A DNA stretch of 64,000 bases from an uncultured Methanosarcinales archaeon. Lineage in GTDB: Archaea > Nanobdellota > Nanobdellia > Woesearchaeales > CAYZNE01. Positions 14,738-61,644 of the stretch are shown in pieces. Made by a program: the position numbers and the translations under genes. The DNA lies in assembly GCA_964461035.1 (NCBI GenBank), contig CAYWRI010000002.1:11129-75128 (forward strand). The letters run 5' to 3'. Under the pieces are notes generated by a model that saw only the letters and a program-made list of their open reading frames with translations, was not told where the DNA came from and searched no databases. Position 1 is the stretch's first letter; every line of letters starts with the position of its first letter.

Positions 14738-14942
14738 GAACAGAGTTGCTGAGAATTAAGTACTGCGTTGCGAACATAGTTCTATAATTCATTTAATTTT
14801 ACTTGGAAATCTTTCATTAAAGAGGAATGTGTCCTGTAATTTGTTGTACATTATACACTCTACAAATAAAAACATATTTAAATAGTAATATCAAAAATAT
14901 ACATATCATTTAAATCATATGTATTTTGAGGGGGAGAGAAGT

Positions 14943-17900: not shown

Positions 17901-20900
17901 TTTTATGCACCCGTAACCACAATAAGTTCATTACCTGAAGGTAATTTATTTGGTAAAGATGTTGTCATAAATTTTTTAAGAGAAGATAATCTTCATCCTC
18001 CTGAAAATATTCATACTTATGCTTGTCTTTATGAAGGAGAATTTGATTCTACAGGTCAAAATCTAATTCCTGATGAATGTAATCCTGCAAGTGAAGGAAA
18101 TGATTGGGACTATCTTGAAGATGGAAATTTTGAACACTTATTTGAACCCCGATCACTTTCTACTATTTTAGTTTATACTTTATATTATTTCTCAGCAGAT
18201 GAATCTAATAATTTTGAAACAATAAAAAGTGAAGTACTTCATATTAATCCAACTCTTCCTTTAATCAATGTTAGTTATTCTTATGAATCATATCCTATAA
18301 ATAATCAATACTTTAACGATTTAGCTGTAACTATATTAGTAACATCTGAGTTTCCAGCGCTTTGTCAAATACAACTTTATTCTGGGCTTGGTGAAGAAAT
18401 TTATCCTGGAGAAGGAATCAATGAACCAATATCATTTATAATTAATTCAGGGGATACAATAGATTTTCCATATTACGAATTATCTGATGGTATTTATAAT
18501 TTTCAAGTTCAATGCACTGATACTTTTTTAGGAAATTCTAATTCTGCATCAAAAGAAATGAGAATACAGGGAGATACAAGAATAAATTCTTCACCCTTTT
18601 ATGAAGTTCTTAAACAAGAATATGTTAACTTTACTGTTCAAACAGCAAATCCTGCTGAATGCTATTATTTAATTAATAATATAAAACACAATTCTGACTT
18701 CGAAACTGTTTATGATCGAGATTCCCAATCTTATAGTGTTATGAAATCTTATTTTGAATCTTCACAAGACTTATCTGATGAAAACTTTGTTGTTAAACAG
18801 TTTGATTCTTCAGAAGAACCTGAAGAAGATGGTTTATATTATCATTATGCTAACGATGTAAACTTTTCAAATCCAAGAAATGTTTCAGGAGTTTATGTTT
18901 ACAATGTTGCATGTAATATAACTATTTACGATCCAGAATTAGAACAAAATGTTTCTGAAATTGTAGAAGGAAATCCAATGCACAGGATAGTTTTTTCTCA
19001 GGATTATACTGCTCCACAAACAGCAATTAAAATGAAAGATTGGAATGATGATTCTTTTGAAGTTTATAATCTTAATTCTGTTTGGAGTCTCGGGCCAAAT
19101 GTTAGTTTTGCATGTAAAGATTTAAATTATTTTGATGATTATTTACCTCTTTGGTTAGAATATGATTCTGATCCAAGAAGAAATTATTTTGTAGAATCAA
19201 ATGTGAATCTTTCAGCAGGTTGTCTAGAACAAAGTAGTTTGAATTTTTGTAGAGTCGGCATGGGTGAAAGTCCTTGCGATCTTCAGCCAATATCGGTTCA
19301 ACCATATACTTTTCTTTTCGAAGATTATGATTGCGAAATTGTAGGATACATTACGGGTATTTGCGAAGTGGTTGGTGTTGGAGGTAATACTGGAGGTCAT
19401 TATAAGAGAGTTTGTTACAATACTATTGATGCACTTGGAAATCAAAGACCAACTTTTTGTGGTGATGTTAAAGTAGACAATGTCGCTCCAGCGTATAATA
19501 GGATAAGTAATAACGATTTTATAGTTTATATGCAACCAATGAGTGAACCACTTACAACAATCGGTCTGGGCTATTATCAGATAGAAATAATTGTTGACGA
19601 AGTTCCTGCAGATTATGATATAAGTCTTTCTATTGCATCAGAAATACTGATTGATCTTGATGAATTTTTTGATGAAGATTCAATGACTCTTTCAGCAACA
19701 TTTATTCCTCATCATTATTTTCCCGAATTATATAATATTAGTGAAAACTTAACATTTAAAATTTATTTAGAAGATGCGCATGGTGTTAGTGATACTTATT
19801 ATAAATATAATTACCTTATTAATACAACTTCTCCGCCAGTACCTCTATTTGAGCCGTTACTTAATGAATTTCATAAACTCAATTATCAAATATTAGATAT
19901 TTTAGGAAATATTTATCCCTTGTTTTATGTTCCAGAGTATTTACTTGATGCAAATGCATATTCATTAGCAAATTTTGATTTAAATGAAACTTTCTTCACT
20001 TATCTTGATGATTTAATAATTACAGGGTTTAGTAGTGCAGATAGTTTTGAACTTGTTCTTAATGACTTAGTAGATGAAAACGCTTTGAATATTCATACTA
20101 TTGATACTTTTATTGCTAATGAGCACGAGTTTATTGACGAGACTGTGCCATTATTAACTGTTCCAATTGTTAATTCTATTGATTACAATAGACAAGGAGA
20201 TATAGAAATATATCTTCCTCACAATGATAATTTAGAAGATATGGTTGGTGCAAGATTAGGTTTACCTATTGATGAAAATAATTATGATTTTGGTTTAGCA
20301 CACGCAGAACAAAAGCAAACTGCATATGGTTCATATTCAAAATTCTATACAGTGCTTAGTATTGCTGAGGATCATATTACTTTAAATGGCGTAGAAGATT
20401 TTCATGTTACAAAATACACTCTTGATGTGTCATTAGAAGAAGATTTGGAATTAGATAAGAATGTTAGTATATATTCCTCGTCTAGTTTAATAGAATCTTA
20501 TCCAAGTAATTACGTGGCTCTTCAGATGCGGGATGTTGAATATAAACAAACTTGTGATCCTAATTCTGGCGGTAATTTCTATGATCTTTCTATTCGTTCA
20601 AAATTTGGAAATGCTGCAACAACAATTGATTCAGAAAAAGTTTTTGTCGATACTGAAAGTCCAAGAGTTGCATACATAACTTTACCACAAGGAACTTATT
20701 CAGAATTAACTCCTGAAATTGGATTTAGCATTATTGAAGGGTCTTGCGGTTCAGGAATAAATATTGATGATTCAAATCTTAATATTATTATAACTGAAAC
20801 GGGTGAATTATATCGACAAATTTCATTATCAGAAATTTTAGTTGATATTTCAGAACCATTCAGTGGAATTGATGTTGCTTATAGCTTTTTATATCAGACT

Positions 20901-22091
20901 CCTGACACTGAACCTTTTGAAAATAATGATTATACAATAGTTGTTGATGCATATGATTATGCAATGAATCCTGTAAGAGCTAATACTTGGTCGTTAAACA
21001 TTAATGATAATGCACCTTCAACACCAATTGTTGAAGTTACAAATGCAGATCCAAATTACGGATTTTGGAATAACATATTCTTTGTGGCTGAATCACCAAT
21101 TATTCAATTAACATTTGCAGAGGGCGAATTAGTTGATTTGATAAGTGTCAAATTATTAACTGAAACTTCTGGTTTTAATTTAGATTGTCGTCAAGTATTT
21201 GATGGGAGTTTTATTTGCACTGTTGACAATCCTGCTTTAATTGAAAATAAAATTTCAATTATTGAAATATCTGCACAATTACTTGACACTGGCGGTTATC
21301 CACTTCGTGTTTCAATAGCTCATTGGTATGATAAACAAGTATCTTTTGACACGGGCGTTCCGAATTTCGAAGTTGATAATTTACCTGGTGCAATTCAACC
21401 AACTGAAGAATTTTCTTGGACAAATTTTTTGATTCTTCTAACGAATCCCGAATTAGATTTATTAGTTAATATATCTGAAGTTCTTGGTGAAGGTTCTCCT
21501 TGTTCAAATTATTTGTTATCTAATTTAAGCAGAAGTACAGATAATTTAACTTATTCTGCAATGTTAAATGCATCTTACTTTGGATGGGCGAGTTATAATA
21601 ATTACGAATTTCAAATAAGTGTTTTTGATAGGGCAATGAATCAAGTTTCTTCAGAATATAATATCTGGGTTGACGATATTCCTCCTGAAATAAACATTAC
21701 TGAATTTAAATCAAACGGAATATATATTTCGCCAGAAGAATTAAATATAACAACAAGCGATTTAAATATATCCATAGGTGGTGTTGTAAATGATTCTGCC
21801 ATGAAACATATTTGTTTAAATGTTTCCAGCGATGCAACATCATATCCTGAAATAACATGTCAATATCCCTGTCTTGAAGGTCAGACATCAGATTGTATAA
21901 CTGAAGATAATTTATTTACTTTTAATTTTACAATGTCCTTTGACTCTTATGTGAATCAAGGTGGACTTGTTTGGAATTATATAAATTTAGTTGCAACAGA
22001 TGATGCATTAAATAAAGAGCAGGCAAATTTAACTGCTTTGCTTGACTTAGAACCACCAACTGTTATAGGTGTATTTGTAGATATAGAGTGA
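14943..22091 (+). CDS. Giant secreted adhesin-like protein (about 2382 aa). It has a Sec signal peptide, a Cys-rich N-terminal region and multiple Ig-like domains. The track start at 14919 is replaced by the ATG at 14943.
   Basis: A strong SD-like 'gagggggagagaagt' sits 0-8 nt before the ATG at 14943. Signal peptide MNNKTLFNILVSLIFLLIFTSNIVA|DPP. Repeated domain-boundary motifs of the D-x-[ST]-x-P type: VDTESPRV, DNVAPAY, DTGVPNF, VDDIPPEI, LDLEPPTV. Very acidic. Confidence 0.8.
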   Translation: MNNKTLFNILVSLIFLLIFTSNIVADPPNYANTLEELLIGEDVFCNTTLQNSNPDDCHLVITCDGTTFDSFVLYTNYYFNYLITELTSTTHFIQDCPGVFEYEYNTPEYPTGCNPVGLTCAYGNCIYEDGETSNIPSEFTDHCFCDDDAQADSTHPYCCVVDELGIVYDVETDCGSGIAYDTYSMSGSIIPNPSSPILLNTSYYTSFVISTNGQQTNPDSLGAFTIQNLISGIYTLSAELTYPSGTSNVYCLGQVIRTISNAPIINADISVTCSLLPGGEPSACDNGCYDEGWQNSGTLDYCNAEILTTFALIDDYCVACPTSQLCDGQCTPNDCDETYHRFCDANSIWHDYFDEHTLYCDECFGDEICDEMPCEAPYNCDGEINGYCLTVFDDPDVGSGLCTYTLTSGDFLTDYLSISSNPLLEHAWCDREHSDWVYADSIVPVDLETYCAHCSGDLEYCTEPVCGDGQVTGLETCDLGYPWGNSELFVPCSGAFVCGQPQGSFSCQCIIDSCGTGGYQPGLEDCEEDTDCINPAFICNDQCECVMSTSCDFEDFSTLANVTYNEVMCTDDLIIVVTLLPACSDLIDEIIMFEIITGVPYVLDTQEITNPNILTYEFTDTLPAETEKQYQIELISHSEFVDITASLTSEPIDAGDPACVNWNPIEGDCQDFRCNDTGTSRLWCGFENELSEEGCTGNCIYNLDSIAVCDNDAYSLDACQSCMGMAGLFYNPNTVFSGTNDFCYSFFPPFGANIECFLDSWFTIVDQARSCAEVTSCYDYNSKDNCVGNDNYVADPCGISNADGCEWVNYNVQTSRGICRPSNPALYDCSSAMNKNTNSLFLYNQRGDTTTNNVLLSKRVCELYGDCFYTDIDNPVPSSGLQEGYNCVNYDGLKCSYFTTQNACENNSVFAITHSTFSPISFASNLISSDHAKCSWTNNKCIRDANDNNIDDHLPNEGFDSNYPLIPKSEYNFIMSPYALNEIQRDFYAPVTTISSLPEGNLFGKDVVINFLREDNLHPPENIHTYACLYEGEFDSTGQNLIPDECNPASEGNDWDYLEDGNFEHLFEPRSLSTILVYTLYYFSADESNNFETIKSEVLHINPTLPLINVSYSYESYPINNQYFNDLAVTILVTSEFPALCQIQLYSGLGEEIYPGEGINEPISFIINSGDTIDFPYYELSDGIYNFQVQCTDTFLGNSNSASKEMRIQGDTRINSSPFYEVLKQEYVNFTVQTANPAECYYLINNIKHNSDFETVYDRDSQSYSVMKSYFESSQDLSDENFVVKQFDSSEEPEEDGLYYHYANDVNFSNPRNVSGVYVYNVACNITIYDPELEQNVSEIVEGNPMHRIVFSQDYTAPQTAIKMKDWNDDSFEVYNLNSVWSLGPNVSFACKDLNYFDDYLPLWLEYDSDPRRNYFVESNVNLSAGCLEQSSLNFCRVGMGESPCDLQPISVQPYTFLFEDYDCEIVGYITGICEVVGVGGNTGGHYKRVCYNTIDALGNQRPTFCGDVKVDNVAPAYNRISNNDFIVYMQPMSEPLTTIGLGYYQIEIIVDEVPADYDISLSIASEILIDLDEFFDEDSMTLSATFIPHHYFPELYNISENLTFKIYLEDAHGVSDTYYKYNYLINTTSPPVPLFEPLLNEFHKLNYQILDILGNIYPLFYVPEYLLDANAYSLANFDLNETFFTYLDDLIITGFSSADSFELVLNDLVDENALNIHTIDTFIANEHEFIDETVPLLTVPIVNSIDYNRQGDIEIYLPHNDNLEDMVGARLGLPIDENNYDFGLAHAEQKQTAYGSYSKFYTVLSIAEDHITLNGVEDFHVTKYTLDVSLEEDLELDKNVSIYSSSSLIESYPSNYVALQMRDVEYKQTCDPNSGGNFYDLSIRSKFGNAATTIDSEKVFVDTESPRVAYITLPQGTYSELTPEIGFSIIEGSCGSGINIDDSNLNIIITETGELYRQISLSEILVDISEPFSGIDVAYSFLYQTPDTEPFENNDYTIVVDAYDYAMNPVRANTWSLNINDNAPSTPIVEVTNADPNYGFWNNIFFVAESPIIQLTFAEGELVDLISVKLLTETSGFNLDCRQVFDGSFICTVDNPALIENKISIIEISAQLLDTGGYPLRVSIAHWYDKQVSFDTGVPNFEVDNLPGAIQPTEEFSWTNFLILLTNPELDLLVNISEVLGEGSPCSNYLLSNLSRSTDNLTYSAMLNASYFGWASYNNYEFQISVFDRAMNQVSSEYNIWVDDIPPEINITEFKSNGIYISPEELNITTSDLNISIGGVVNDSAMKHICLNVSSDATSYPEITCQYPCLEGQTSDCITEDNLFTFNFTMSFDSYVNQGGLVWNYINLVATDDALNKEQANLTALLDLEPPTVIGVFVDIE

Positions 22092-25000
22092 TAACTTTAA
22101 AAAATAAAAAAAGAGGTGTAGGGCTTTCAGTTAAGAGCTTAAATTTTTTTATTTCTTTCTTATTATTAGTTATGACTATATCATTACTTACTTTACCCGT
22201 AAACGCAGATGATATTATTAAGTATTCAAATAATGCTTATCCTGAATTAACAATAAGTTTTTCAGAACCTATTTTACTAAGTAATGTAACTGCAAATGTT
22301 CGTTGTGCAAATGAAGATGGAAATTGTTTTCAACTATATGACACTCTTGATTCATTTGCAACAGTTTCAAATGATGGAATATCTGTTCAATATGGTCCAA
22401 ATTCAGACAGTTCTGTAATAGTATATTCATTAAATAGACCTTTGTTAAGTGATACATATTTATTTGAAACAACGGTTTCAGACTTACTTGGAAATGAATT
22501 AATTGATTATGAAATTACTTTAATTGTAGATTCTGAATCAGAAAGTATTGAGCTTATTGAACCAATTCAGGGTTGGGCAAATTCAACTTCATTTGATATT
22601 GTTGTTGAAACTCAATTACCCGGTTCTTGTTGGGCTAATCAAGAAGATTTTAAATTTTCACCAAATTTAGATAACACACATCTTTTTACTGATTCAACTT
22701 CAGGAATGCGACACACAATATCTAATATCGCTATTTGGGGAGATGATGCAATGGTTCGACATTCGCCATATGATCTTTATGTTGTTTGTAATTCTTCTAA
22801 TGCGGCAAACTCAAATAAAATTTATCTAGGTCATTTTATATTGGCGTGGGATGATACTCCGCCTAATTTAAATTATCATCCTGAATTTCAATATACTGTT
22901 CTTGATATTACAGAACCCTATGTGGATATGATTATTGAATCAGATTATATAACTGGAGATCCTCCCGATGAAATTGCTTGTAGATTAAAAAATTTAACAG
23001 AAGACGGAATTTCAATACAAAATTCACCCTATGAATTTTTTCCTAATATTAATTATTCTGACTTATGGAATTACACAAAAACAAATACGAAGCGTTTAGA
23101 TTTTTCATATATTCTTGACGGTGGAACGCCTAATGGTGGAGTGCATGAGCCCCATGAGTATAGATTTGAGGTTTCTTGTAGAAATACTGCTAGACTCAAA
23201 CCAACACCTTTTGAAAGAATATATGATATCACTGTGCAATTTGCTGATACATTTAGAATTGAAAAATTACTCCCTCATGATTATGTTAATGCAAATCCGG
23301 TTTTTATAGAAGTAAAAACTTCTGTTGTAACAGACGCTTGTAATATATCTGCTGAAGGTGCATCCTTAGATGAAATAGAACAAATGGTTCAAATTGTTGA
23401 TGAAAAAACATATGCTATATCTTTAAGTGGCTTAGAAGAGGGAACTCATTCTTACGAAGTAACTTGTTACTCTCACATATATACTAGCTCAGGATTGTTA
23501 AGCTTTGATTTTGTTGTTGATAGAACATCACCTTCACTCTTAGATATAAATTCTCTTGTCAAAACTTGCTCGCTTAATTCTTTTGAATTTGAATTATATG
23601 CAGAAGACAATGTCGGTCTTAATTATTTTAAATATAATTTTACGGGAGTTAATGTAAGTATTCAAAACATCATTAATTCAGAAGATACGGAGGACACTGT
23701 AAATGTAGAATTTGATGATTTAGAGTTAATTGAAAATCAAACTTACACAATAACTGCGTGGGTTTATGATCTTGCTAATAATTCTAAAGGTCCTGTAACA
23801 AAAACAATTACTGCTTCAAAACCTAATGATCTTGTTTGTGATTTATATCCTCCATCAATAACACTTAATGTTATTAATGAGTCTATGGGAGAAGTTACTG
23901 TAAAACTAAATTGTCAAGACTCTGGAAGTGGATGTTCTGATAATTATATTTTAGAAAGATTAGGAAATCTATCACATGCTTGCTCTTATTATAGTGGTCA
24001 CGAAATGCCTTTCTCAGACAATATTATAATTTCCTATGACACAAAAATATGTGCGCAAGCACACGATTTATCAGGTAATAGTGTGAATAAATCTTGGATA
24101 ATTGAAGTTCCAACAAATCTTCCTCAATATTGTCAGAATAATGTTAAAGATGAAGATGAATCAGGGATAGATTGTGGTGGTAGTTGTGTGGGGTGTTCTT
24201 TAGATTCTCCTTGTTTTTCAAGCACTGATTGTGTTTCAGGCATGTGGTGCGATCCTACTTTAAATCTTTGTAAATGGGCATCTTGTGATGATAAAATAAT
24301 GAATGGTCAAGAAACAGATATTGATTGTGGCGGTCCAGATTGTACAACTTGTTCAATTAATAGCTCTTGTTTAACATCTGATGATTGTGATAGTAATTAT
24401 TGTACTGCAGAAGGTATTTGTTCTTTATCATCCTGTTCTGATGGAATCATGAATGGTTTTGAAACTGATGATGATTGTGGCGGTCCAGATTGTACACCCT
24501 GTCAAAACGAAAAGGATTGTGATTTTGACACAGATTGTCAAAGTGGTTGTTGTAATTACGGAACTTGCGATGATTGTTCTAGTTCACCTTCACCTCTACC
24601 ACCTCCCCCTCCAAAAGATATTGTTTCGCTCATATTATTAATAGTTGGAATAGTTTTAATTTTGGCAGGAAGCGCTTATCTTTATTACTTGCATGCTAAT
24701 AAATTAAATTCTTCAAATACGCAAATAGGTTTTTCAGATTCTTTATCAGATTCTCGTATTTCAAAATCTAAACAATTAAAAACTCATTTAACAAAAGAGC
24801 AATTATTATCTTTAACCAATAGAAAAAAGCAAATGCGTAACAAATTTAAATCTAGAAAAACAGATAGATTATCTGAAATAGAAACAACCATGTCAGAATT
24901 TGATGAAAAAACTCTCGGAGTAAAAAAAGAAAAAAAAGACCAAACAACTAAAAAAGTTGAAAAACTTGTTGATAATATGGATTTAAAAAATAAGCAAGAT

Positions 25001-25735
25001 AATAATAAAACAGACGATGATAATAAAAAAATAAAAGAAAAACTTTCTGTTGATTTTCCTGCAAAAGATTTTATTTCGCTTAAAGAATTAGAAGAAAGTT
25101 CTGTAGAATTAATGAATAAAGATAAGAAGTTTAAGGATAAAGTTATGACTGATGTTTTTGCGCAATTAGAAAAATTACACGCAACAAAACCAGAAATAAA
25201 AAAAGCAAAGCAAAAAGATAAATTATCTGTTTATTATGATGGAGTTATTCCTGTTGAAGATGAATCTCCTATAGAAACTTTAGAAAAAACTAATTCCTCT
25301 AAAAAAGATTCTTCAAAGACAACTTCTAAAACAGCTTTAAAAATAACTTCAAAAATATCTAAAAATTCAAACAGTAAAAAATCAAAGTCTACAAATTCTA
25401 TGCCGTCTTCTAAAAAAGACGATGATGTTTTTTTGGCTCTAGAAAAAATTTCAAATTCCTCTTCAAAAACATCTTCTAAAAAAGATATAGAACTTAAATC
25501 TGATTCAATTAATTTTAAAAATAATCTTAACGCAGATACGGATAGTATGATTAACTTATTTAAAACTAATGAGTTAAATATTGATGTGTTTAAAGTAATA
25601 CTGTCCGAACTTTTAAACTCAAAAAAACTAAATAAACAAGATGTTTCAGGAATAATATTTAGACTTCTTGAACAAAAACTAATAAAAGAATCTAAAGCAA
25701 ATAAAATATTAACAGAATTAGGGTTATTAAATTAA
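22088..25735 (+). CDS. Type-I membrane surface protein (1215 aa). Order: signal peptide, Ig-like domains, three tandem Cys-rich modules, poly-Pro stalk, TM helix, and a ~350-aa Lys/Ser-rich cytoplasmic tail.
   Basis: GTG start overlaps the stop of the previous gene (GTGA). Signal peptide ...LLTLPVNA|DD. Ig-like boundary motifs WDDTPPNL, VDRTSPSL, CDLYPPSI. Three modules of the form D-x-D-CGG-x2-C-x2-C...MNG-x-ET. Stalk LPPPPPK, TM IVSLILLIVGIVLILAGSAYLYYL, then a K/S/D low-complexity tail. Confidence 0.8.
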   Translation: MITLKNKKRGVGLSVKSLNFFISFLLLVMTISLLTLPVNADDIIKYSNNAYPELTISFSEPILLSNVTANVRCANEDGNCFQLYDTLDSFATVSNDGISVQYGPNSDSSVIVYSLNRPLLSDTYLFETTVSDLLGNELIDYEITLIVDSESESIELIEPIQGWANSTSFDIVVETQLPGSCWANQEDFKFSPNLDNTHLFTDSTSGMRHTISNIAIWGDDAMVRHSPYDLYVVCNSSNAANSNKIYLGHFILAWDDTPPNLNYHPEFQYTVLDITEPYVDMIIESDYITGDPPDEIACRLKNLTEDGISIQNSPYEFFPNINYSDLWNYTKTNTKRLDFSYILDGGTPNGGVHEPHEYRFEVSCRNTARLKPTPFERIYDITVQFADTFRIEKLLPHDYVNANPVFIEVKTSVVTDACNISAEGASLDEIEQMVQIVDEKTYAISLSGLEEGTHSYEVTCYSHIYTSSGLLSFDFVVDRTSPSLLDINSLVKTCSLNSFEFELYAEDNVGLNYFKYNFTGVNVSIQNIINSEDTEDTVNVEFDDLELIENQTYTITAWVYDLANNSKGPVTKTITASKPNDLVCDLYPPSITLNVINESMGEVTVKLNCQDSGSGCSDNYILERLGNLSHACSYYSGHEMPFSDNIIISYDTKICAQAHDLSGNSVNKSWIIEVPTNLPQYCQNNVKDEDESGIDCGGSCVGCSLDSPCFSSTDCVSGMWCDPTLNLCKWASCDDKIMNGQETDIDCGGPDCTTCSINSSCLTSDDCDSNYCTAEGICSLSSCSDGIMNGFETDDDCGGPDCTPCQNEKDCDFDTDCQSGCCNYGTCDDCSSSPSPLPPPPPKDIVSLILLIVGIVLILAGSAYLYYLHANKLNSSNTQIGFSDSLSDSRISKSKQLKTHLTKEQLLSLTNRKKQMRNKFKSRKTDRLSEIETTMSEFDEKTLGVKKEKKDQTTKKVEKLVDNMDLKNKQDNNKTDDDNKKIKEKLSVDFPAKDFISLKELEESSVELMNKDKKFKDKVMTDVFAQLEKLHATKPEIKKAKQKDKLSVYYDGVIPVEDESPIETLEKTNSSKKDSSKTTSKTALKITSKISKNSNSKKSKSTNSMPSSKKDDDVFLALEKISNSSSKTSSKKDIELKSDSINFKNNLNADTDSMINLFKTNELNIDVFKVILSELLNSKKLNKQDVSGIIFRLLEQKLIKESKANKILTELGLLN
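24165..24580 (+). repeat. Three tandem copies of a Cys-rich module of about 48 aa (about 145 nt) within CDS 22088..25735.
   Basis: IDCGGSCVGCS..., DIDCGGPDCTTCS..., DDDCGGPDCTPCQ.... The stretch 'gattgtggcggtccagattgtaca' is identical in copies 2 and 3. Confidence 0.7.
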
Positions 25736-31270: not shown

Positions 31271-31326
31271 ATCTATTTACTTTTATAAATTCTAAAAATT
31301 ATAAATAAAAATTAAATATTATTTTT

Positions 31327-31584
31327 TTAGCTAGTACTTAGGATACAGCATTCCTGATTTCCAGGGCAAACCAATTCATTACCTTCATTATCATAAGAAT
31401 AATCTGCAAAAGCGCCATCACAAGATTCTCTGCACATTCCCATCTTAGAACTGCAACTTATTCCACTATCAATAGGCTTAATCATACTAACAACGAAGTA
31501 GATTATTACTCCTAAAACTAATAACCCAAGAACTGCCACTATTACTGTATGTAAACTTAAGCTCTGTGCTTTTTTATTCAACAT
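31327..31584 (-). CDS. Small Cys-rich pilin-like protein, 85 aa.
   Basis: MLNKKA|QSLSLHTVIVAVLGLLVLGVIIYFVV, then a Cys-rich tail ending ECCILSTS. Confidence 0.65.
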   Translation of the reverse strand: MLNKKAQSLSLHTVIVAVLGLLVLGVIIYFVVSMIKPIDSGISCSSKMGMCRESCDGAFADYSYDNEGNELVCPGNQECCILSTS

Positions 31585-31607
31585 TTTTTATTACCTCATT
31601 AGTTTTT

Positions 31608-31850
31608 TTAGATTGGTATGCAACATACAGGATCTTCTTCGGGGCATCCTCTCTGTCCACTTTCTAAATAGCCATCACCACACCAGCCAGAATCATCACA
31701 TCTTGCTCCAGATATTCCAGTACAACTTGTCTGATCAAAAAGTTCTCCACCTGTATTCAAAACAAGGGTTGCAAGAATTACTAGGACAAGTAATGATACT
31801 GCTGCAATAATGATTGTATTCATACTTAATCCTTGTGCTTTTTTATTCAT
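31608..31850 (-). CDS. Small Cys-rich pilin-like protein, 80 aa (tandem paralogue of 31327..31584).
   Basis: MNKKA|QGLSMNTIIIAAVSLLVLVILATLVL, then a Cys-rich tail ending PVCCIPI. Confidence 0.65.
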   Translation of the reverse strand: MNKKAQGLSMNTIIIAAVSLLVLVILATLVLNTGGELFDQTSCTGISGARCDDSGWCGDGYLESGQRGCPEEDPVCCIPI

Positions 31851-31960
31851 TTTTTCACCTCATTAATCTTTTTATGTTTAATGTAACTTAACCCATTCTT
31901 TATTTTTATTACCTTTATATATAAATTTATTGATAACTTTTATGTTTTTTTTGATATTTT

Positions 31961-36069: not shown

Positions 36070-36699
36070 ATGGTCAAATTAGGTTTTTTATTAAAAAAAT
36101 TTTTCAGAAGTATATTTAAAGGTAGAAGAGATATAAAACTGGGTTTATATGGCCCGCCAAATGGTGGAAAAACAACTTTAGCTAACACAATTTGTAAAGA
36201 TTGGCTTGGTGAAGAGATGGGTTCTGTTTCTAATGTTGCTCATGAAACAAGAGAAGTTCAAATAAAAGAAGAAGTCACCATAAAAAATAAAGCTGGAAAA
36301 GAATTAAAATTTAATCTGGTTGATACTCCAGGAATTGCTACAAAAATAGATTATGAAGATTTTCTGAAATCTGGAATGAAAGAAGCTAAAGCAAAAGAAA
36401 GGGCAAAAGAGGCAACCAAAGGAGTTATTGATTCAATAAAATGGCTTGATGATATGGATGCAGTAATAGTTGTTTTAGATAGTACAATAGATCCATATAG
36501 TCAGGTAAACATAACTATAATGGGAAATTTGCAGGCAAGAGATATTCCTGTTCTTGTTGTAGGAAATAAAGTAGACTTGAAAAAAGCAAATCTTAAGAAA
36601 CTTCAAGCAGCATTCCCTCAATATGATGTTATAGGAATTAGTGCTAAATATGGAAAAAATATAGAAGAACTATATGATTCAATTTTTAAATTAGTTTAA
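36070..36699 (+). CDS. Small P-loop GTPase (Ras/Arf-like superfamily).
   Basis: G1 GPPNGGKTT, G3 DTPG, G4 NKVD. Confidence 0.7.
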   Translation: MVKLGFLLKKFFRSIFKGRRDIKLGLYGPPNGGKTTLANTICKDWLGEEMGSVSNVAHETREVQIKEEVTIKNKAGKELKFNLVDTPGIATKIDYEDFLKSGMKEAKAKERAKEATKGVIDSIKWLDDMDAVIVVLDSTIDPYSQVNITIMGNLQARDIPVLVVGNKVDLKKANLKKLQAAFPQYDVIGISAKYGKNIEELYDSIFKLV

Positions 36700-36715
36700 A
36701 AGAGCGTGAGAAAAG

Positions 36716-37102
36716 ATGTTAACATTTCAATTTGTACCATATGAGGATATAAGAGGACTTGATTCAGATCAGAGAATAAAGCGACTTTTAAGCATGGTTA
36801 AATCAGAAAAAATAATTCTGTTAGCAGGTCATCTTAAAAGTCAAGAAGAGGCAGAACTAATAAAAAGAACAATGGAAGCAATATCTAAAACCTTTAAAGG
36901 AATAGAGATAGGTTCTATTTCTCCAAGACATGCTAACAAGTTTAAAGAATTTTTGCTCAGAACTTTTTTCGGTGAAGAAACAGGATTTACAATTATAGGT
37001 CCTGCATCTGTAATAAAAGAAATAAAACAAGATCCAGGTAAAATTCAATTATTTATGAATGAAGCTGAAGGAAAAAAATCTATTAATAAGAGAAAAAGAT
37101 AA
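36716..37102 (+). CDS. Small conserved protein, DUF2073-like, that partners the GTPase.
   Basis: 128 aa, directly downstream of the GTPase and upstream of the Zn-ribbon gene. The family assignment is from memory of this conserved archaeal trio and was not verified. Confidence 0.4.
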   Translation: MLTFQFVPYEDIRGLDSDQRIKRLLSMVKSEKIILLAGHLKSQEEAELIKRTMEAISKTFKGIEIGSISPRHANKFKEFLLRTFFGEETGFTIIGPASVIKEIKQDPGKIQLFMNEAEGKKSINKRKR

Positions 37103-37103
37103 A

Positions 37104-37490
37104 ATGCCACATCAATGTGTTAAATGCGGAGAAATATATGATTCTGGTACAGATGTTATTCTAAAAGGATGTAGAAAATGTGGTGGAAAGATGTTCTTTT
37201 TTATTAAAAAAGATGCATTAGCTAAAAGAAAAAATATTGTTAAAAATCTTTCTGAAGAAGAAAAAATTCAAATAGAAAAAGATGTTTATGACATTATGGG
37301 TGAAGATATAGATAAGGAAAAGCCTATAATACTTGATATTGAATCAATAAACATTCTTAAACCAGGAAAATATGAACTCGACCTTGTTAATCTCTTCAAG
37401 AAAAAACAACCACTGATTTATAAACTCGAAGATGGCAAATATATTATTGATTTAATTGAAACTTTTAATAAATTTCTAGGTAAAAAGTGA
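37104..37490 (+). CDS. Zn-ribbon protein (DUF2072-like).
   Basis: MPHQCVKCGE...GCRKCGG gives a CxxC...CxxC ribbon. The start is adjusted to the ATG immediately after the upstream stop. Confidence 0.5.
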   Translation: MPHQCVKCGEIYDSGTDVILKGCRKCGGKMFFFIKKDALAKRKNIVKNLSEEEKIQIEKDVYDIMGEDIDKEKPIILDIESINILKPGKYELDLVNLFKKKQPLIYKLEDGKYIIDLIETFNKFLGKK

Positions 37491-38347: not shown

Positions 38348-38472
38348 TTTTTTCTTTTTTATTTACTTTTTGTCATAAGTTCTGCATATTTTTGAGTTGC
38401 GTTTTTTGCAAATTCTTCATAAGTTGCTTTAAGTTCTTCAGGAGTGTTAGCGTTTGAAAATTTTTGTACGAA

Positions 38473-38757
38473 TCAGGACCCACAATGTCCATGTGTCGAT
38501 ACTAAGTGTAATCGCTCTTTATCTATTTTTGAGTCTATTGAATCTTTTAAGTTTTTCCTTATTGAATCGTCTAGTTCACGAATTTTTTTACGGCTTTCTC
38601 CGTCTCCAAGCATATAAACTAATTTATAATAAATATCACTAAATGAAATACCATTTTTAGAATTATTTAATGTCATTGTAGCTTTAAATCTGGTAGCTTT
38701 AGAAATAATTATGTCAGAATCAAAGTACTTATGCACTTGAGCGTCTATATAATTCAT
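38473..38757 (-). CDS. Hypothetical protein that ends ...HGHCGS at a TGA. The same frame continues for 38 more codons to a TAA at 38359.
   Basis: See the finding at 38359-38757. Confidence 0.5.
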   Translation of the reverse strand: MNYIDAQVHKYFDSDIIISKATRFKATMTLNNSKNGISFSDIYYKLVYMLGDGESRKKIRELDDSIRKNLKDSIDSKIDKERLHLVSTHGHCGS

Positions 38758-38834
38758 AACTTGAAAACAATATGTTAATTTAAACTCTTTTTATGTTAAA
38801 ACTTATATAAACAGATTTTAAAAAAATAAAAAAA

Positions 38835-40274: not shown

Positions 40275-40431
40275 TTAAATACACCCCGCATAACATATCT
40301 TGAAAAACAATTATATTATTTAATACTTTCTATTATTTTGAAGTCAGAATGTCTTTGCTTTTAAACTTAGGTTTATTCTTTAATTCAAGCAATGATAATT
40401 GTGGGTCTCACAACACTAATTGTGGGAACAG

Positions 40432-40720
40432 TTGTCTTTATTTATTTACAAAAAAGCCAATACTATAACCTATGCAAAAATGAAAAATCAAAGATTTTTA
40501 GTCATGTCTTCGACATAAACCAGAGGTTTTTGAAATACAAAATTGTAAATTTTGGTCATTATTGATTGAAAATCAATAATAAACGAAAAACAGAGTTTTT
40601 GGTCACGATAAAGCGTAAATCGAAGATTTAGGTTGTAGATGTAGGCTTTTTTGGATGCCATCCTTTTTGTTGGATACCGCATTCTTTAGGTTGTGAAAGG
40701 ATGTCATTTTATCAGGTAGT
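40432..40720 (+). repeat. Intergenic repeat element, copy A (about 280 nt). It is related to 61645..61870 and to a partial copy near 44040..44095.
   Basis: Shared blocks: aaaaaagccaa[tc]ac[tc]ataa[ct]ctatgcaaaaa; c[at]gaggtttttgaaa; cgaaaaacagagtttttggt[ct]ac[ga]ataaagcgtaaatcgaagatttaggttgta[ga]atgtaggcttttttg; tttaggttgtg...ggatgt[ct]attt. Confidence 0.6.
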
Positions 40721-41174
40721 TGTTCTCAATTAGGTTTTTGCCAGGATCAATATCTTCCTTTTCATAACTTTCTTGTAACTTTTTGTATTTAGATAATGGT
40801 TGTATGGTTGTTAAAATATGTTCCCTTAAAATATTCGGGTTGTTAGCTATGTTAGTTTTATTGTCAGAATCTTCTCCTTGGTTTAATATTTCTTGTTTTT
40901 TTATATATGCATCATTAATATCTTCAACAGTTCTTAGATTATCTTCGGGTTTTTCATAACCGTTTACACCTAAAAAATTAGCAATATGATGATTTTGAGT
41001 CTCACGACTTGGAATACTTATTTTATTTAATACCTTTCCTACATAATTTACTACATTTCCTATATTTTTTAATATATTTTTTCTCCATTTTAAATCACAT
41101 CCTTTTATGATTAAATTAAGTAATTTATAGTGGTAAATTATAACTAGTATATAGGTGTTTCGATTGTTTATCAC
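40704..41174 (-). CDS. Hypothetical protein (156 aa).
   Basis: ORF only. Confidence 0.35.
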   Translation of the reverse strand: MINNRNTYILVIIYHYKLLNLIIKGCDLKWRKNILKNIGNVVNYVGKVLNKISIPSRETQNHHIANFLGVNGYEKPEDNLRTVEDINDAYIKKQEILNQGEDSDNKTNIANNPNILREHILTTIQPLSKYKKLQESYEKEDIDPGKNLIENNYLIK

Positions 41175-43997: not shown

Positions 43998-44118
43998 AAA
44001 ACTATTTTATATTATTGGATGAGTATTTAAGTTAGACTGTGTTTATTGTTCGCAAAAAACCAATATCATAATCCTATAAAAATCATAGAGCTTTAGTGTG
44101 CTAAAAACTTTTTGTTAT

Positions 44119-53651: not shown

Positions 53652-56600
53652 TCAATTATTAAACTTGTTTATATAAGAATCTAAGTCTTCAGTTTTTTGT
53701 TTTTCTTTTTTAATTGTTTTAGTGAGCAATCTTTTTTTTCTAAAATTGTTAACAAAAAGAAAAAGGAAAATAAGAATTAAGAAAAACGCAACTGAAACAA
53801 GAAGGATTTTCCAACCATCATCTTTTTCTTTAAAGACTATGTCCTTTTGATCTATGTTTAAATTATAATTAATTAGTTCATTACAACTTTTTATAGAACT
53901 TTCAAGTAATAGATTTGCATTTTCAAAATTAGAAGAATTAATCTTTTCTTTTATTTTATCAAAGTTACTTATCAACTCATTACAAATAGGATTATTCGAA
54001 ATTAAATGTTCAGCAAATTTTAATTTTGTAATTAAATCGTCTTTAATAGTTGTGTCTTTTAATAATGCAGTAATGTAAAGATACTCTGTTTCTGTAAAGT
54101 CAGGAGAAGTGCTATGTATCAACAATTTAAGAGTGTGATTTCCAGTTTTATTTTTAGAAGAGAATTGACCTTCAATTGATTTTTTCTGATTTGAAATCAA
54201 ATCCAAGTGTGATTGAAATAATGAACATGTACCCGTATTACATTCAAGATCTAATTCCAAATCATTAAGAGTTTGATTCAACTTGTTTTTTACATGAATT
54301 ATAAAGTAAACTGTTCGATTTGAAGATATGGTTAAAGGATCAGGCATTGTTATTTCTAAGGGTTCTGAATAAACATTATTCGTCACAGGAAGAGTTATTG
54401 TTCGAGTTGAACTTCCACCAGATGAAGAAGATGAACTTAAATCTTCATCTCCATCAGTTGAACCATCTTCTTCTTGTCCAGAAATATTAAAATTTATAGT
54501 AATGTTCTGTGAAGAAACAACTTCGTAAGTATCATTGAGTGTGAAGTAAATAGTTTCTTGCAAATTGTTATTATTATTTGAGTTAAAAGTTACTGAATTA
54601 GTAATGTTATTTATTGTAACAATCATATTATTATATCCTAAAGCGGCATAAATTAATGTATCATCTGAATCATAATCATAAAAAAAGTTATCCAGATCTA
54701 CCCAGTCTTCAAGTATTTGAGTGTTGAGAGTTGAATTTCTAAGAAACTTTTTTAAGAATAAGTTCTGAATTATTGGTGTTTGAGAAGTATCATTAGTTAA
54801 CATAATAATTTTGTATTGAAAATATTTTCCCTCACTAGGTATCAAATTTTGATAATCATTTTCTATGGTTATCCATTCTGACCAAGAACCATTATTATAA
54901 TCTGAAGAGTATCCTGTTCTTGCAAAACAAGATATTGAAGTGTTAATAAAAGTTGTATTAGTAAAATTAAAAGATGCGTAATATCTTGACTCCTGCCATT
55001 CTATTATGGGTGAAGTATAAGTTCCATTGTTTGAGTAATTTCCATTTGAAGTATTTAAAGAAAAACTTGTTTCATAAAATAAATTATGAAAAATTCCATT
55101 TGAAAAAGAAGAATGGTTGAATAAGTCAAGTTCCATTGCATAATGAGGTAGCCTATTAAGATTTATGACTGAAACATTCCAATAACGTGTTTTATAAAAG
55201 TTACCATCAAACACTTGTAAAGTAATATTATGATTACCTGCAGAAGTATAATTAAAATATACTGAAATATTAGCAGACGAAGAATAAATAACTGAATCCA
55301 AAAACCAAGTATAACTTAAATTATCTCCATCTAAATCATAAGAAGAATGATTAAAATCCACTGTGTCTGTTTCATTAATAGTTATGTTAACACCTATAGG
55401 TGTATCAATACTTATGTTTGGAGGGTTATTTTGAGTGATGTTTAAAGTAAAACTTGCTTGAGTCATGTTTCTAGAATCATTTAAATCACAAGTTATTTTT
55501 GCCAAACCAATAAAATTATTTAGTGCGGTAACTTTTAACAATTTAAGAACATTGGTCATAGATAAATTGAGTTCCGAATTTGTTAAATTGGAAGAACAAT
55601 TCCACATTAACTCAGTTAATAAATTATCTTCATCAAAAGAAGAATTTGTAAAATTCAAGTATCTAAAAGTGTTTTGAATAAGTAAAGAATTATTGAACGC
55701 CGTAAAATTTATATTCGGAATATCATTTTTTTCTGTTAAGTTAAAAGTAAAATTTTCAGAATCCCATAAAGGTTCAAAATCCTCAACAGAATAATTTATT
55801 ACAAACTCTTGAACACCATCAATTTCATCAATAACAGTATAATTAAATCGATAAGAATAAAGAAAGTTTTGATTAGCTCTATTTAAACTCAAATTAGCGT
55901 TTAAATCAAACAAAGATAGTAAATTTGAATCCAAATAAATAAATGCTCTATACATATTAGTTTCAGAATCTATTGAGGTAAAGTTAAAGTATATTGTATC
56001 TCCTTCACAAACATTAGTAGGTACTAAGCTATTTGTTATTATTGGAGGCATATTATTTCCCACCCCAAAACAATTTGAACACAAACGACTAGTTGAGTTT
56101 TCTGAATCAGAAGCTTCTAGTAAATATTTGTAAGTGCCAGCATCAGAAAAATTTGTTTGCCAAATAATATCTACTTGCCAAAGATGATTTTCATAAGTTA
56201 AATTGGATAAAGTAATGTTAAAAGACTGATTAAAAGTACAAACACCCTCAGTTTGGTCATATTCATCTAAAGAAACATTACAAGAATATATCCATGTACA
56301 ATTATTAGAATTGCAAGGAGCAGAACAATTACAAATATAATACGAAAAATTAATTAAATCTTCATCTTCGTCTCCAATAGCACCATGTCCGGAAGAAGAA
56401 TCTCCTTCGCTCGTGCCAGACCCAGAATTACCTGTAACATTAATTAATCTGTTAACATTAGTTATATTTATGTACCAATAATGAAAATCGTATTTAGTTG
56501 GAATGCCAACAGAATCAGATGCTCGCATGCTGACTCTGTGTGTTCCCTCAGGTTCTGAGGAATAACTTGTTTCTGCATCATCATAATCTGCAAAATAAGT

Positions 56601-57527
56601 ATAACAAGAATAATTTGAAGTATAATTAATTTGAACAGAACCAGAATTAAAAAACCAAAACCCTGAAAGAGAATTACCATCAGGATCTGTGTAATTAGCA
56701 CAAAAAGTTATGTTTTCTTCTTCAGTTATAGTTATATTACTGGTTAAATCCTCAGATTCTTCAACTATTGAAGAGTTTGAGTCATTGCTTGGAAAATGCC
56801 AATAAATAAATGGTGGACGATTATAACTCATGATTGTTAAATTCCAAGTTAGAGAAGTACACGCAGAATTATTGTCACAAATTGTTGCGTTTATTATGTA
56901 GTTACCATCTGATTCACAATCAGGCAAAAAACAATAACTTGCATTTAATTCAGAATTTGGAGAAGGGTTTTGTATAGATGTATTGATGGCTTGAAAAACA
57001 TCTTCATTAAACCAAGTTACGTTTAATTCATCATTAGTGGGATCAATATCCATAAAAAAAGCTGTAAAACATATTGATTGATTTTCTTCAGTTACAGGTG
57101 TTGAATTAAAGTGTTCTGTTCCTAAATATGCTTGCCAAGATTGATTTAAAACAATTGGAACATCATTAGTATTAATAATATAGATAGGTATGAAACCAGT
57201 TTCTAATTTATCCGCAGGATTTGAAATATTAAATACTTTAATTCCTCGCTCATAGTAAATATCATAATTATCCAAATTATCTGCAATATCTTGAAATAAA
57301 CCATTTTCAGATATGTTTCTTAAAATCGTTGATTGATCGACTGCATCAATATAAATGGAGTAATTAACTAAACTTTCATCACAAGTAACATTGAAATCAA
57401 AAGAAAAAATACTATCTTCTATTAATGTAAAATTAGCGGGAACTGATTGATCCCAATTAAATGATGCAGCCAAAACTACTGAAATATTCAAAATTGCGAA
57501 AAATAGTAAAAATATTTGTTTTTTCAT
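53652..57527 (-). CDS. Giant Asn-rich surface protein (1291 aa). It has a signal peptide, dozens of N-x-S/T sequons, and a C-terminal TM anchor with a basic tail.
   Basis: Signal peptide MKKQIFLLFFAILNISVVLAASF. C-terminus ...WKILLVSVAFFLILIFLFLFVNNFRKKRLL. The composition is very N/S/T-rich. Confidence 0.75.
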   Translation of the reverse strand: MKKQIFLLFFAILNISVVLAASFNWDQSVPANFTLIEDSIFSFDFNVTCDESLVNYSIYIDAVDQSTILRNISENGLFQDIADNLDNYDIYYERGIKVFNISNPADKLETGFIPIYIINTNDVPIVLNQSWQAYLGTEHFNSTPVTEENQSICFTAFFMDIDPTNDELNVTWFNEDVFQAINTSIQNPSPNSELNASYCFLPDCESDGNYIINATICDNNSACTSLTWNLTIMSYNRPPFIYWHFPSNDSNSSIVEESEDLTSNITITEEENITFCANYTDPDGNSLSGFWFFNSGSVQINYTSNYSCYTYFADYDDAETSYSSEPEGTHRVSMRASDSVGIPTKYDFHYWYINITNVNRLINVTGNSGSGTSEGDSSSGHGAIGDEDEDLINFSYYICNCSAPCNSNNCTWIYSCNVSLDEYDQTEGVCTFNQSFNITLSNLTYENHLWQVDIIWQTNFSDAGTYKYLLEASDSENSTSRLCSNCFGVGNNMPPIITNSLVPTNVCEGDTIYFNFTSIDSETNMYRAFIYLDSNLLSLFDLNANLSLNRANQNFLYSYRFNYTVIDEIDGVQEFVINYSVEDFEPLWDSENFTFNLTEKNDIPNINFTAFNNSLLIQNTFRYLNFTNSSFDEDNLLTELMWNCSSNLTNSELNLSMTNVLKLLKVTALNNFIGLAKITCDLNDSRNMTQASFTLNITQNNPPNISIDTPIGVNITINETDTVDFNHSSYDLDGDNLSYTWFLDSVIYSSSANISVYFNYTSAGNHNITLQVFDGNFYKTRYWNVSVINLNRLPHYAMELDLFNHSSFSNGIFHNLFYETSFSLNTSNGNYSNNGTYTSPIIEWQESRYYASFNFTNTTFINTSISCFARTGYSSDYNNGSWSEWITIENDYQNLIPSEGKYFQYKIIMLTNDTSQTPIIQNLFLKKFLRNSTLNTQILEDWVDLDNFFYDYDSDDTLIYAALGYNNMIVTINNITNSVTFNSNNNNNLQETIYFTLNDTYEVVSSQNITINFNISGQEEDGSTDGDEDLSSSSSSGGSSTRTITLPVTNNVYSEPLEITMPDPLTISSNRTVYFIIHVKNKLNQTLNDLELDLECNTGTCSLFQSHLDLISNQKKSIEGQFSSKNKTGNHTLKLLIHSTSPDFTETEYLYITALLKDTTIKDDLITKLKFAEHLISNNPICNELISNFDKIKEKINSSNFENANLLLESSIKSCNELINYNLNIDQKDIVFKEKDDGWKILLVSVAFFLILIFLFLFVNNFRKKRLLTKTIKKEKQKTEDLDSYINKFNN

Positions 57528-57536
57528 TTTTTAATA

Positions 57537-58454
57537 TCAGGGTTCTATCTTATATATTGTATTTATCAACACCAACTTTAACAAGTACAAAATAAGTAAT
57601 AGGATTAAAGAGTATGTAATTAACTGTTTTTCCTCTTGTACTACGGAATTTACTATAACTGAAGATTTTGCATTTGAAAAATCTCTATTTTTTAAGTTGA
57701 AATAAGTAATATCTTCTAAATCCCCAATTTTTTGAAAGGTTTCATCTAACTTGAAAGTTATATTGGTTTCGGGGATTACACCTCCTTCAATTGTTCCAAC
57801 ACCAATTATTGAAAGATGTAAATTCTTATTAACGATATAATCTAAAGCATTATCTAAATTTGCATCACTGAGAGAATCCGTTAATAAAACTAAATTTCCC
57901 ATTTCTTCTTCTTGAAATAAATTTGCTGAAGTTATTAATGCATCAACTAGTTGAGTGTTACTTTTTGTTGTTGGTTCTAATTTATTCAACGAGTTAAAAA
58001 AATCTTGTTTATTTGCACTTAACGATTGATGTATTTTAACATTAGAAGAATAACTCACTAAACCTAATTTTGAAGAAGAGGAAGAATCTTTAACTATGTT
58101 TTCTATGAATTCTTTACTAAGAAAGAATCTGGAAGTACCCACATCTTTAACAAGCATACTCACAGATGAGTCCAACACAAAAACATAATTAGATCCGCCC
58201 ATTTCCTTTTCATATAAGACAACTGGAGAAGATAAAGTAAAAATTAAGAGAATCAAAAAAAGTAATCTTATAATATCTAAAAAAAAGAAATTTGGTTCAC
58301 CAGCTATATTTATTGCTTTTTTTATTAAATCGAAGTTAGCAAAAGTAACTGAGTTTTTTTTGTATCTTTTTTTAAAAAATAAAAGTAAAACCGAGATAAT
58401 TGGAACTAGTACAAACAAAAACAAGTAGTTGGGGTTCGTAAATATTAATTCCAT
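57537..58454 (-). CDS. VWA-domain membrane protein (BatA-like).
   Basis: N-terminal TM helices plus the MIDAS-like motif VFVLDSSVSM. Confidence 0.55.
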   Translation of the reverse strand: MELIFTNPNYLFLFVLVPIISVLLLFFKKRYKKNSVTFANFDLIKKAINIAGEPNFFFLDIIRLLFLILLIFTLSSPVVLYEKEMGGSNYVFVLDSSVSMLVKDVGTSRFFLSKEFIENIVKDSSSSSKLGLVSYSSNVKIHQSLSANKQDFFNSLNKLEPTTKSNTQLVDALITSANLFQEEEMGNLVLLTDSLSDANLDNALDYIVNKNLHLSIIGVGTIEGGVIPETNITFKLDETFQKIGDLEDITYFNLKNRDFSNAKSSVIVNSVVQEEKQLITYSLILLLILYLLKLVLINTIYKIEP

Positions 58455-61002: not shown

Positions 61003-61644
61003 TAAGTTTAATTCTCGGGTGTTGTAACATAGTTCCTGACAATGATTTAGAAAAAATAGGATAGACTTATTTAACTTAGCTTTTTCGGATTTAAGATTCG
61101 AATCATATAACAGATTATAAGCTTTTGTTAAAGGAACATTACTATCAATATTTAAAAAAAATGAAAAAACTATTTTAAACTTTCTAACATAATCATAATA
61201 TTCGGAATCATTAATACCTAATCCAGATAATGAAAAATTTTCATTGACAAAGTTCCGAAAGTTTATTTCTTGTTCTTTGACTTTAATATAACTCCCCCCC
61301 TAAACATCTAGAACTTACTTTTGATAAATAAATTAACTATTATGATTGAAGTAATTGTTTATAAAATTATCTATTTAAGTGGCTAATATGAAACTCGCTG
61401 TATTTTTGTGTTCGTTAGTGTCATTATTATCATTTTATTTAACTGAAAGTAAGATAATAATGGTTAGATTATCTAAATAACAACAGTGAGTGTAATGCAG
61501 ATTGATATATTAAGAAATTAATACTTCTAGATTCTATTAAAAAATGATTTGTAAATAGCAACTTGGAATTGAATTAAATTTATTCGTTGTTGATACTTAG
61601 TTTATGTTTCAGGGTTAAAGTTGAATTTTTATTGAGCATATTTT

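Follow-up and report, generated by a model that had tools for sequence, protein, structure and literature searches.

A small, lineage-restricted family of mosaic palindromic repeats at gene 3' ends in a DPANN archaeon, with one module found in either of two hairpin loops

Among the described systems, the BIME/REP elements of enterobacteria, the BOX elements of Streptococcus pneumoniae and hairpin elements derived from IS200/IS605 are similar in style to the repeat reported here. REPs, which are short (20-40 nt) imperfect palindromes linked to RAYT transposase genes, are present in hundreds of copies, and IS elements insert into their loops. BOX elements follow a boxA-boxB(n)-boxC plan with a fixed module order and are present in more than 100 copies. 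Archaeal transcription terminators, for which a T-run is the termination signal, are short and locus-specific. DPANN archaea have tiny, streamlined genomes, and to our knowledge little is known about their non-coding DNA and mobile elements. Two kinds of non-autonomous element are relevant to archaea in general: MITEs, which have been surveyed there (PMC11602168), and PATEs, which derive from IS200/IS605 and are described also in archaea (the term is used in PMC3119063 and PMC4810608).

The window, i.e. the whole 64,000-nucleotide stretch of DNA that was analysed, has a G+C content of 28.4%. A Pfam scan of its 46 ORFs of at least 120 aa identified several aminoacyl-tRNA synthetase-type proteins, an ECF/ABC transporter, a MoxR/VWA cluster and a P-type ATPase, along with very large, functionally uncharacterised proteins and numerous ORFs without a family. 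Transposase, integrase and reverse-transcriptase domains were not found among these 46 ORFs, and neither tRNA or tmRNA genes (ARAGORN) nor Rfam-recognisable RNA genes were found in the 64 kb. The best named relatives of a purB-like protein encoded next to one of the repeat copies (copy A) are Nanoarchaeota, Woesearchaeota, Pacearchaeota and other DPANN MAGs; beyond an identical database entry, its next relative is only 75% identical. The third locus described below encodes an archaeal RNase HII and a Hel308-type helicase, and the host is therefore taken to be an uncultivated DPANN archaeon.

A preliminary description, made from the sequence alone, had reported two full copies and one partial copy of an intergenic element in the window. 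Alignment confirmed the two full copies as genuine, with copy A at 40450-40712 and copy B at 61650-61869, and the blocks listed for them are indeed common to both, in the same order and orientation. They share a core of 72 nt (40581-40652 and 61695-61766) with an identity of 94% (blastn E ~2e-27), from which a 28-mer occurs exactly twice in the window, compared with 0.00 expected occurrences in shuffles. The reported indels were also recovered: A carries inserts of 39 nt (40481-40519) and 46 nt (40535-40580), and a stretch of about 20 nt in A corresponds to a 62-nt block in B (61768-61829). Likewise, each full copy contains the hairpin followed by a T-run that had been described, namely GGATGCCATCC and then T5 in A, and ATGCTCA...TGAGCAT and then T12 in B. 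The partial copy had to be dropped. It has a blastn E-value of 0.23 and is absent from the nhmmer profile output at E<=50, and since the window has a G+C content of only 28%, this similarity is at chance level. Profile searches of the window with models of the two components of the repeat, the host unit H and the module P' (nhmmer --max), found no further copies. The statement that the element is not CRISPR-like holds, as the repeat scan found no regularly spaced array and the copies are 21 kb apart. The features of both copies and of their surroundings are as follows.

40450-40468, plus strand: copy A, A6 run and 5' arm of hairpin 1 (AAAAAAGCCAATACTATAA), which pairs with 40629-40646 in the fold
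40469-40626, plus strand: copy A, hairpin 1 loop containing module P' (CCTATGCAAAAA...AAATCGAAGA), the module being split by two A-specific insertions
40627-40652, plus strand: copy A, first TTTAGGTTG, 3' arm of hairpin 1 and T6 run
40653-40712, plus strand: copy A, hairpin 2 (GGATGCCATCCTTTTT ... second TTTAGGTTG at 40685-40693 ... AAAGGATGTCATTTTAT), with an empty loop site
40704-41174, minus strand: hypothetical ORF of 156 aa that starts with GTG and matches no Pfam family; its 3' end overlaps the tail of copy A
44045-44090, plus strand: claimed partial copy in the spacer between the P-type ATPase and peptidase S51 genes, excluded from the family because the similarity is not significant
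61650-61669, plus strand: copy B, A7 run and 5' arm of hairpin 1
61670-61740, plus strand: copy B, P' in its uninterrupted 71-nt form, in the loop of hairpin 1
61741-61767, plus strand: copy B, first TTTAGGTTG, 3' arm of hairpin 1 and T7 run
61768-61829, plus strand: copy B, block of 62 nt specific to this copy, containing the nested hairpin ATGCTCA (CAAAAA CTTG TTTTTG) TGAGCAT and then T12
61830-61869, plus strand: copy B, rest of hairpin 2, second TTTAGGTTG at 61842-61850 and tail GAAGGATGTTATTTGA
61862-63880, minus strand: gene for a NosD/beta-helix protein next to copy B, 3' end overlapping the tail of B

The host unit H, which is what is left of each copy when P' is taken out, comprises about 105 nt and two hairpins. 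Hairpin 1 lies between the A-run and the T-run and consists of AAAAAAGCCAATACTATAA, the loop TTTAGG and TTGTAGATGTAGGCTTTTTT, while hairpin 2 is composed of CCATCCTTT...GGATACC..., again a TTTAGG loop, and ...AAAGGATGTCA. The motif TTTAGGTTG is found twice per H, once in each apical loop; four of its five occurrences in the window are within the elements, with 0.87 occurrences expected in total. The module P' (71 nt) is an array of four hairpins: CAAAAACC-N3-GGTTTTTG, AAAAAC-AGA-GTTTTT, ACGC-TAAA-GCGT and TAAATC-GAA-GATTTA. Three of the four are perfect palindromes in B, where the third is degraded, and this third hairpin is perfect in only one copy, the copy C described below. The two insertions that are specific to A (40481-40519 and 40535-40580) are themselves strings of perfect hairpins with 3-nt loops and stems of 7, 5, 7 and 10 bp.

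This density of palindromes sets the elements apart from the rest of the window, whose two hairpin-densest 300-nt windows are the two elements. When perfect hairpins with stems of at least 5 bp were counted, a procedure in which the same hairpin may count at two loop sizes, A, B and C gave 14, 11 and 7 hits compared with about 2, 1.7 and 0.8 in shuffles, and none of 500 shuffles reached the observed numbers. Hairpins of the form AAAAAC-N-GTTTTT are found four times in the window, every time in the elements, with 0.36 expected.

A scan of JGI metagenomes with one 19-20-mer of the element returned two contigs of the same organism, one covering the locus of copy B (L002) and the other carrying a third copy, C, at 1270-1444 of a contig (L001) that is not part of the window. 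The three copies occupy unlinked loci and have unrelated flanks. In C, both arms of hairpin 1 are adjacent and form a simple hairpin, AAAAAAGCCAATACTATAAAC TTTAGG TTGTAGATGTAGGCTTTTTT. The module is present nevertheless: P' is found at 1347-1417 (CCTATGCAAAAACC...AAATCGAAGA), about 55 nt beyond hairpin 1 and within hairpin 2 (CCCCGA / TTGGGG). A and B thus have P' in the hairpin 1 loop, whereas in C it is the loop of hairpin 2 that contains the module. Its right junction, ...CGAAGA followed by TTTAGGTTG, is the same in all three copies, so that P' is always directly 5' of TTTAGGTTG, or 3' of CAACCTAAA when read on the minus strand, and its left flanks are ATAA in A, ATAA in B and CCCCGA in C. 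Duplicated flanking bases were not found at the P' junctions of A, B or C.

With P' removed, the H units of A and C are identical at 94 of 102 positions, and the P' cores of the copies agree at 66-67 of 71 positions. Overall, these recent, unlinked copies are 92-98% identical, with loops, linkers and spacers included. The simplest description of these alignments would be a pair of equivalent loop sites, either of which can accommodate P', and the displacement of a 57-nt segment between the two sites is a formally equivalent one. The movement of the module rests on one permutation event among the three known copies.

Each of the three copies borders on a minus-strand gene, at the 3' end of that gene. 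The preliminary description had placed every copy in intergenic DNA, which is nearly correct; the exception is that the tails of A and B hold the last two to three codons and the stop codon of minus-strand ORFs (TCA at 40704-40706 of ORF 40704-41174 in A, TTA at 61862-61864 of ORF 61862-63880 in B). Copy C is located between convergent genes; it starts 12 nt past the plus-strand stop codon, and the minus-strand stop codon is 15 nt away. The element-bearing spacers measure 429, 859 and 202 nt. Among the six remaining convergent spacers of the window, five are 32-121 nt long and contain nothing similar. T-runs of five to twelve residues are present on both strands of the element. Hairpin 1 is followed by a T6-T7 run in all three copies, and the mirror-image A-run is the same signal on the other strand.

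Several minor observations concern these flanks. The ORF 40704-41174 (minus strand) contains no methionine and is known solely from the source MAG, and it may be a degraded or misannotated gene. Short hydrophobic plus-strand ORFs are located upstream of A (40392-40565, MIIVGLTTLIVGTVVFIYLQ...) and of B (about 61389-61481, MKLAVFLCSLVSLLSFYL...); the former reads into copy A, and neither has homologues or a counterpart at copy C. A 30-nt inverted match with 87% identity links the start of the first A insertion (40471-40500, …ATGAAAAATCAAAGATTTTTA) to 57507-57536, an arm that coincides with the stop/start junction of the genes 57537-58454 and 53652-57527 (…ATGAAAAAACAAATATTTTTA). This match is probably a low-complexity coincidence.

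Independent assemblies are available for loci B and C. Locus B is 100% identical in four contigs from JGI, ENA and Logan, one of which reaches only the start of the locus, and locus C is 100% identical in three contigs of independent JGI, ENA and Logan assemblies. Since these assemblies are identical, loci B and C are not assembly artefacts. Independent assemblies of the 44-kb locus are also 100% identical. No polymorphism between empty and filled sites was found among the independent assemblies, all of which are clonal.

Outside this organism, no relatives of the element were detected in the collections searched. Two different 19-20-mers had no exact match in 185,579 species genomes, five blocks of the element gave only chance matches in IMG/VR, as checked with nhmmer, and blastn searches of phage and plasmid collections found no relatives. 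A chimeric six-frame peptide query, intended to detect spurious ORF calls at further copies, had no match among 5.8 billion proteins. In the contigs fetched for the nearest two relatives (purB 75% and 71% identical; L003-L007 and L019/L020), neither the element nor synteny was present. As nothing related was found in any other genome examined, the spread of the element cannot be traced. The metagenome scan recaptured one of the two window copies and added one new copy, while the density in the window, about 30 copies per Mb, would have led to a dozen new matches. For this reason, the family of P'-bearing elements is probably small, with fewer than ten copies.

A side observation from the same search concerns the purB locus in the nearest relative (75%), the contigs of which break just upstream of purB (L003 3-125, L006 2-139). 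The fragment at the break has the C-terminus …KSQKIEILTRVIAYNIDRLIRI, which resembles the end of a DDE transposase. A transposase end would suggest IS activity at the purB locus in relatives.

Compared with the systems introduced above, the element resembles BIMEs in its general plan. Both are extragenic clusters of palindromic units at gene 3' ends or between convergent genes, both have a mosaic composition that changes from locus to locus, hairpin loops serve as insertion sites, and side functions as terminator or mRNA stabiliser would be compatible with either. The differences from REPs are the archaeal host, the number of only three known copies and the lack of sequence similarity. In addition, the palindromic units are confined to the three elements, and neither a RAYT nor a Y1 transposase was seen among the 46 window ORFs of at least 120 aa. 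With BOX, the element shares a modular intergenic organisation of about 100-300 nt, variable internal modules, a strong predicted structure and the lack of an encoded transposase. However, here one module shifts between two hairpin loops, and the family is tiny.

The agreement with PATEs is partial. The element is rich in hairpins and has no terminal inverted repeats, and P' is inserted directly 3' of a fixed CAACCTAAA (minus strand) without duplication, as seen at three junctions and two sites in H. In contrast to PATEs, P' does not have a pair of similar subterminal hairpins at its left and right ends, since its similar hairpins (AAAAAC/GTTTTT) are adjacent at one end and those at the other end, ACGC/GCGT and TAAATC/GATTTA, are unrelated to them. 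At 71 nt, P' is also far below the known size of PATEs, and TnpA/TnpB were not seen in the window. The element thus half fits this class. As for classical MITEs, the copies are short, non-coding, AT-rich, structured, intergenic and interspersed. However, outer terminal inverted repeats and target-site duplications are lacking, and with three known copies the family is probably far less numerous than MITEs. The outer ends (…TTATTCTC AAAAAAGCC and GGATGTCATTTTAT) are not inverted copies of each other, and the only inverted termini of P' are CCTA/TAGG, 4 nt in length. The check for target-site duplications that the preliminary description had proposed found none, as the flanks of A, B and C share only AT-rich chance matches. 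Among the options offered in that description, the MITE-like mobile repeat nevertheless comes closest, in that near-identical copies are found at three unlinked loci with a module at two positions; the part that did not stand is the assignment to classical MITEs, given the lack of outer terminal inverted repeats and target-site duplications and the probably low copy number.

The element also has the appearance of an archaeal oligo-T or bidirectional hairpin terminator, with an A-run, a GC-clamped hairpin and a T-run, T5-T12 runs on both strands and a position at gene 3' ends. As far as predicted sequence signals go, a T-run of at least five residues after a stable hairpin at a gene 3' end is present. 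A scan for bacterial-style promoters and terminators gave counts equal to those in shuffles. The difference from known archaeal terminators is that the units measure 180-270 nt and are 92-98% identical between unlinked loci.

We consider the chance about even that this is a low-copy, lineage-restricted, non-coding mosaic palindromic repeat that is propagated at the DNA level, in either a selfish or a duplicative manner. The near-identity of copies at unlinked loci, the module with two sites, the accretions, the placement at gene ends and the restriction to one lineage argue for such a mobile or duplicative DNA repeat. In this scenario, copies of H would have reached the 3' ends of at least three unlinked genes, P' would have moved between two equivalent loop sites, or equivalently the intervening segment would have moved, and further small hairpin blocks would have accreted in A and B. 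A transposase or recombinase acting in trans could process such a palindromic selfish element in its single-stranded or hairpin form, and stems that are exact palindromes, the same on either strand, would be expected of hairpins formed at the DNA level. Mobility and the participation of an enzyme are what we infer from the observed anatomy; given that neither terminal inverted repeats nor target-site duplications are present, no known transposition chemistry is identified. Judged by its predicted signals, the element probably ends transcription that arrives from either side, and its insertion at gene ends would for this reason be tolerated. This putative terminator function alone does not account for the sequence identity and the mosaicism.

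A more specific version of the mobile repeat must be regarded as doubtful. According to it, P' would be a mobile module of a new and extremely small kind in DPANN archaea, a hairpin array of only 71 nt. An enzyme provided in trans would excise it as single-stranded DNA and paste it beside CAACCTAAA in the apical loops of hairpins that resemble terminators, and the combination of H and P' would be an archaeal counterpart of BIME/REP, i.e. mobile bidirectional terminators.

It is unlikely that the copies are instead structured ncRNA genes or 3' UTRs on the plus strand, in which hairpins 1 and 2 would form the scaffold and P' an optional loop domain. Folding is the main point in favour of this explanation. 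Plus-strand folds are more stable than those of shuffles (z = -4.1 for the core of B, -5.8 for the core of A and -5.7 for C) and 6-14 kcal/mol better than those of the minus strand. This advantage is due to G-U pairs and, as a property of predicted folds, could be taken as a hint of selection on RNA rather than DNA. In the 5' arm of hairpin 1, A and B show U/C differences at three positions that are opposite G or in a wobble pair, and only plus-strand RNA would tolerate these differences. Furthermore, every insertion is located in or beside a hairpin loop, and hairpin 1 ends in the T-run in each copy. However, RNAalifold found no compensatory change among the 28 pairs of the three P' cores, which are near-identical and therefore give this check little power; two of the pairs are broken and two differ on one side only. 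In addition, the hairpin 1 stem of B contains uncompensated C-A mismatches. Most stems are exact palindromes that work equally well on both strands and for this reason carry no strand information. Rfam 15 yielded nothing in the window at the gathering score, and what it returned for both loci at E<=10 was noise. As the homology begins about 8 nt before the A-run, there is no conserved promoter at -25 or further inside the repeat, and TATA/BRE signals are not conserved at a useful distance within it. The P' domain switches its host helix between copies, which would be awkward for a single RNA architecture, and no homologue was found in the relatives examined. The small RNA gene family proposed in the preliminary description thus received no positive support from Rfam, compensatory changes or an internal promoter, and the outcome that this description had named as speaking against it, only these copies and no covariation, is essentially what was found with regard to RNA. 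In line with its remark that the element shows no coding potential, no ORF is conserved: a frame with a start codon that is common to the copies was absent from the six-frame translations.

Somewhat less likely again is a native cis-acting cassette, which would serve as bidirectional terminator and stabiliser of mRNA 3' ends and would be kept alike by selection and gene conversion. This reading draws on the same signals that led the preliminary description to suggest a transcription signal cassette, and these signals stand: hairpin 1 is enclosed by runs of A6-7 and T6-7, more T5-T12 runs are found on both strands, and the copies are always at gene 3' ends, with C between convergent genes. The identity of 92-98% is what such a cassette leaves unexplained, because in loops and linkers it exceeds the needs of a signal. 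Since the other convergent spacers mostly measure 32-121 nt, the genome has no need of cassettes of 200-860 nt. The module permutation and the private insertions are likewise unfit for a constrained signal, and the tails of A and B extend into the terminal codons of genes.

Finally, the copies could be relics of something larger, such as attL/attR of an element spanning 40.7-61.6 kb, a duplicated gene 3' end or a locus resembling a type I toxin-antitoxin system. A and B are direct repeats 21 kb apart in the repeat scan, and small hydrophobic plus-strand ORFs are located upstream of both. However, the 21 kb between them encode two class II aminoacyl-tRNA synthetase-type proteins, the ECF/ABC transporter, the MoxR/VWA cluster and the P-type ATPase, without an integrase. 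The small ORFs are outside the homologous region, with none at copy C and no homologue. The C-termini of the three flanking genes are unrelated, which speaks against the duplicated gene 3' end that the preliminary description had named as a possible refutation. Given this gene content and the presence of copy C at a third unrelated locus, such relics are largely refuted and must be considered very improbable.

Some known systems were considered as further candidates and rejected. Integron attC sites follow a cassette ORF and consist of one imperfect hairpin with R''/R' cores (RYYYAAC ... GTTRRRY) at its base; by inspection, the arms TATAAAC and GTTGTAG do not fit these cores, and the flanks are housekeeping genes rather than cassettes. 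The same kind of content between the copies excluded attL/attR of an island, and type I toxin-antitoxin systems were set aside since the small ORFs are outside the repeat. The template and variable repeats of a DGR were rejected because the scanned ORFs lack a reverse-transcriptase domain and the repeat is outside coding sequence. For a BHB intron, the junctions are in a continuous helix without bulges, and for tRNA halves, the tRNA-like arms are absent. A replication origin was likewise rejected: OapB and OapC, 3 kb away, belong to a small-GTPase vesicle cluster (PMC10927574), GC skew tracks the gene strand, and B and C are found elsewhere.

The repeat is a genuine small family private to its lineage and a new member among the interspersed mosaic palindromic intergenic repeats. 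An identity of 92-98%, spacers enlarged from about 30-120 nt to 200-860 nt and a relocated module suggest active small-scale DNA mobility in a DPANN genome. If both movement and terminator activity are true, the element would be an archaeal analogue of the bacterial mosaic palindromic repeats and would offer a handle on a hairpin-targeting recombinase. As the family is small and private to its lineage, its wider significance is limited, and the permutation of the module is the one feature worth following up.

Other parts of the window also deserve mention. The cluster of three genes for a small GTPase (MMR_HSR1), OapB (PF09846) and OapC (PF09845) at 36070-37490 (plus strand), about 3 kb from copy A, resembles haloarchaeal oapABC, for which the small GTPase is reported to drive the formation of extracellular vesicles (PMC10927574); neither an Orc1/Cdc6 gene nor a clear skew switch was seen near it. 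Four gaps of 490-690 nt between ORFs of at least 120 aa (6208-6706, 31271-31960, 38348-38834 and 61003-61640) are of a length that is unusual in a compact genome. These gaps match no Rfam family, are dissimilar to the element and may contain small genes, pseudogenes or unknown RNAs. Two overlapping giant ORFs at 14919-22091 and 22088-25735 (plus strand) encode 2390 and 1215 aa with almost no Pfam signal, and the 1215-aa ORF contains a tandem Cys-rich repeat (24279-24352 and 24429-24502, 81% identical) that encodes a ...DCGGPDCT.C motif.
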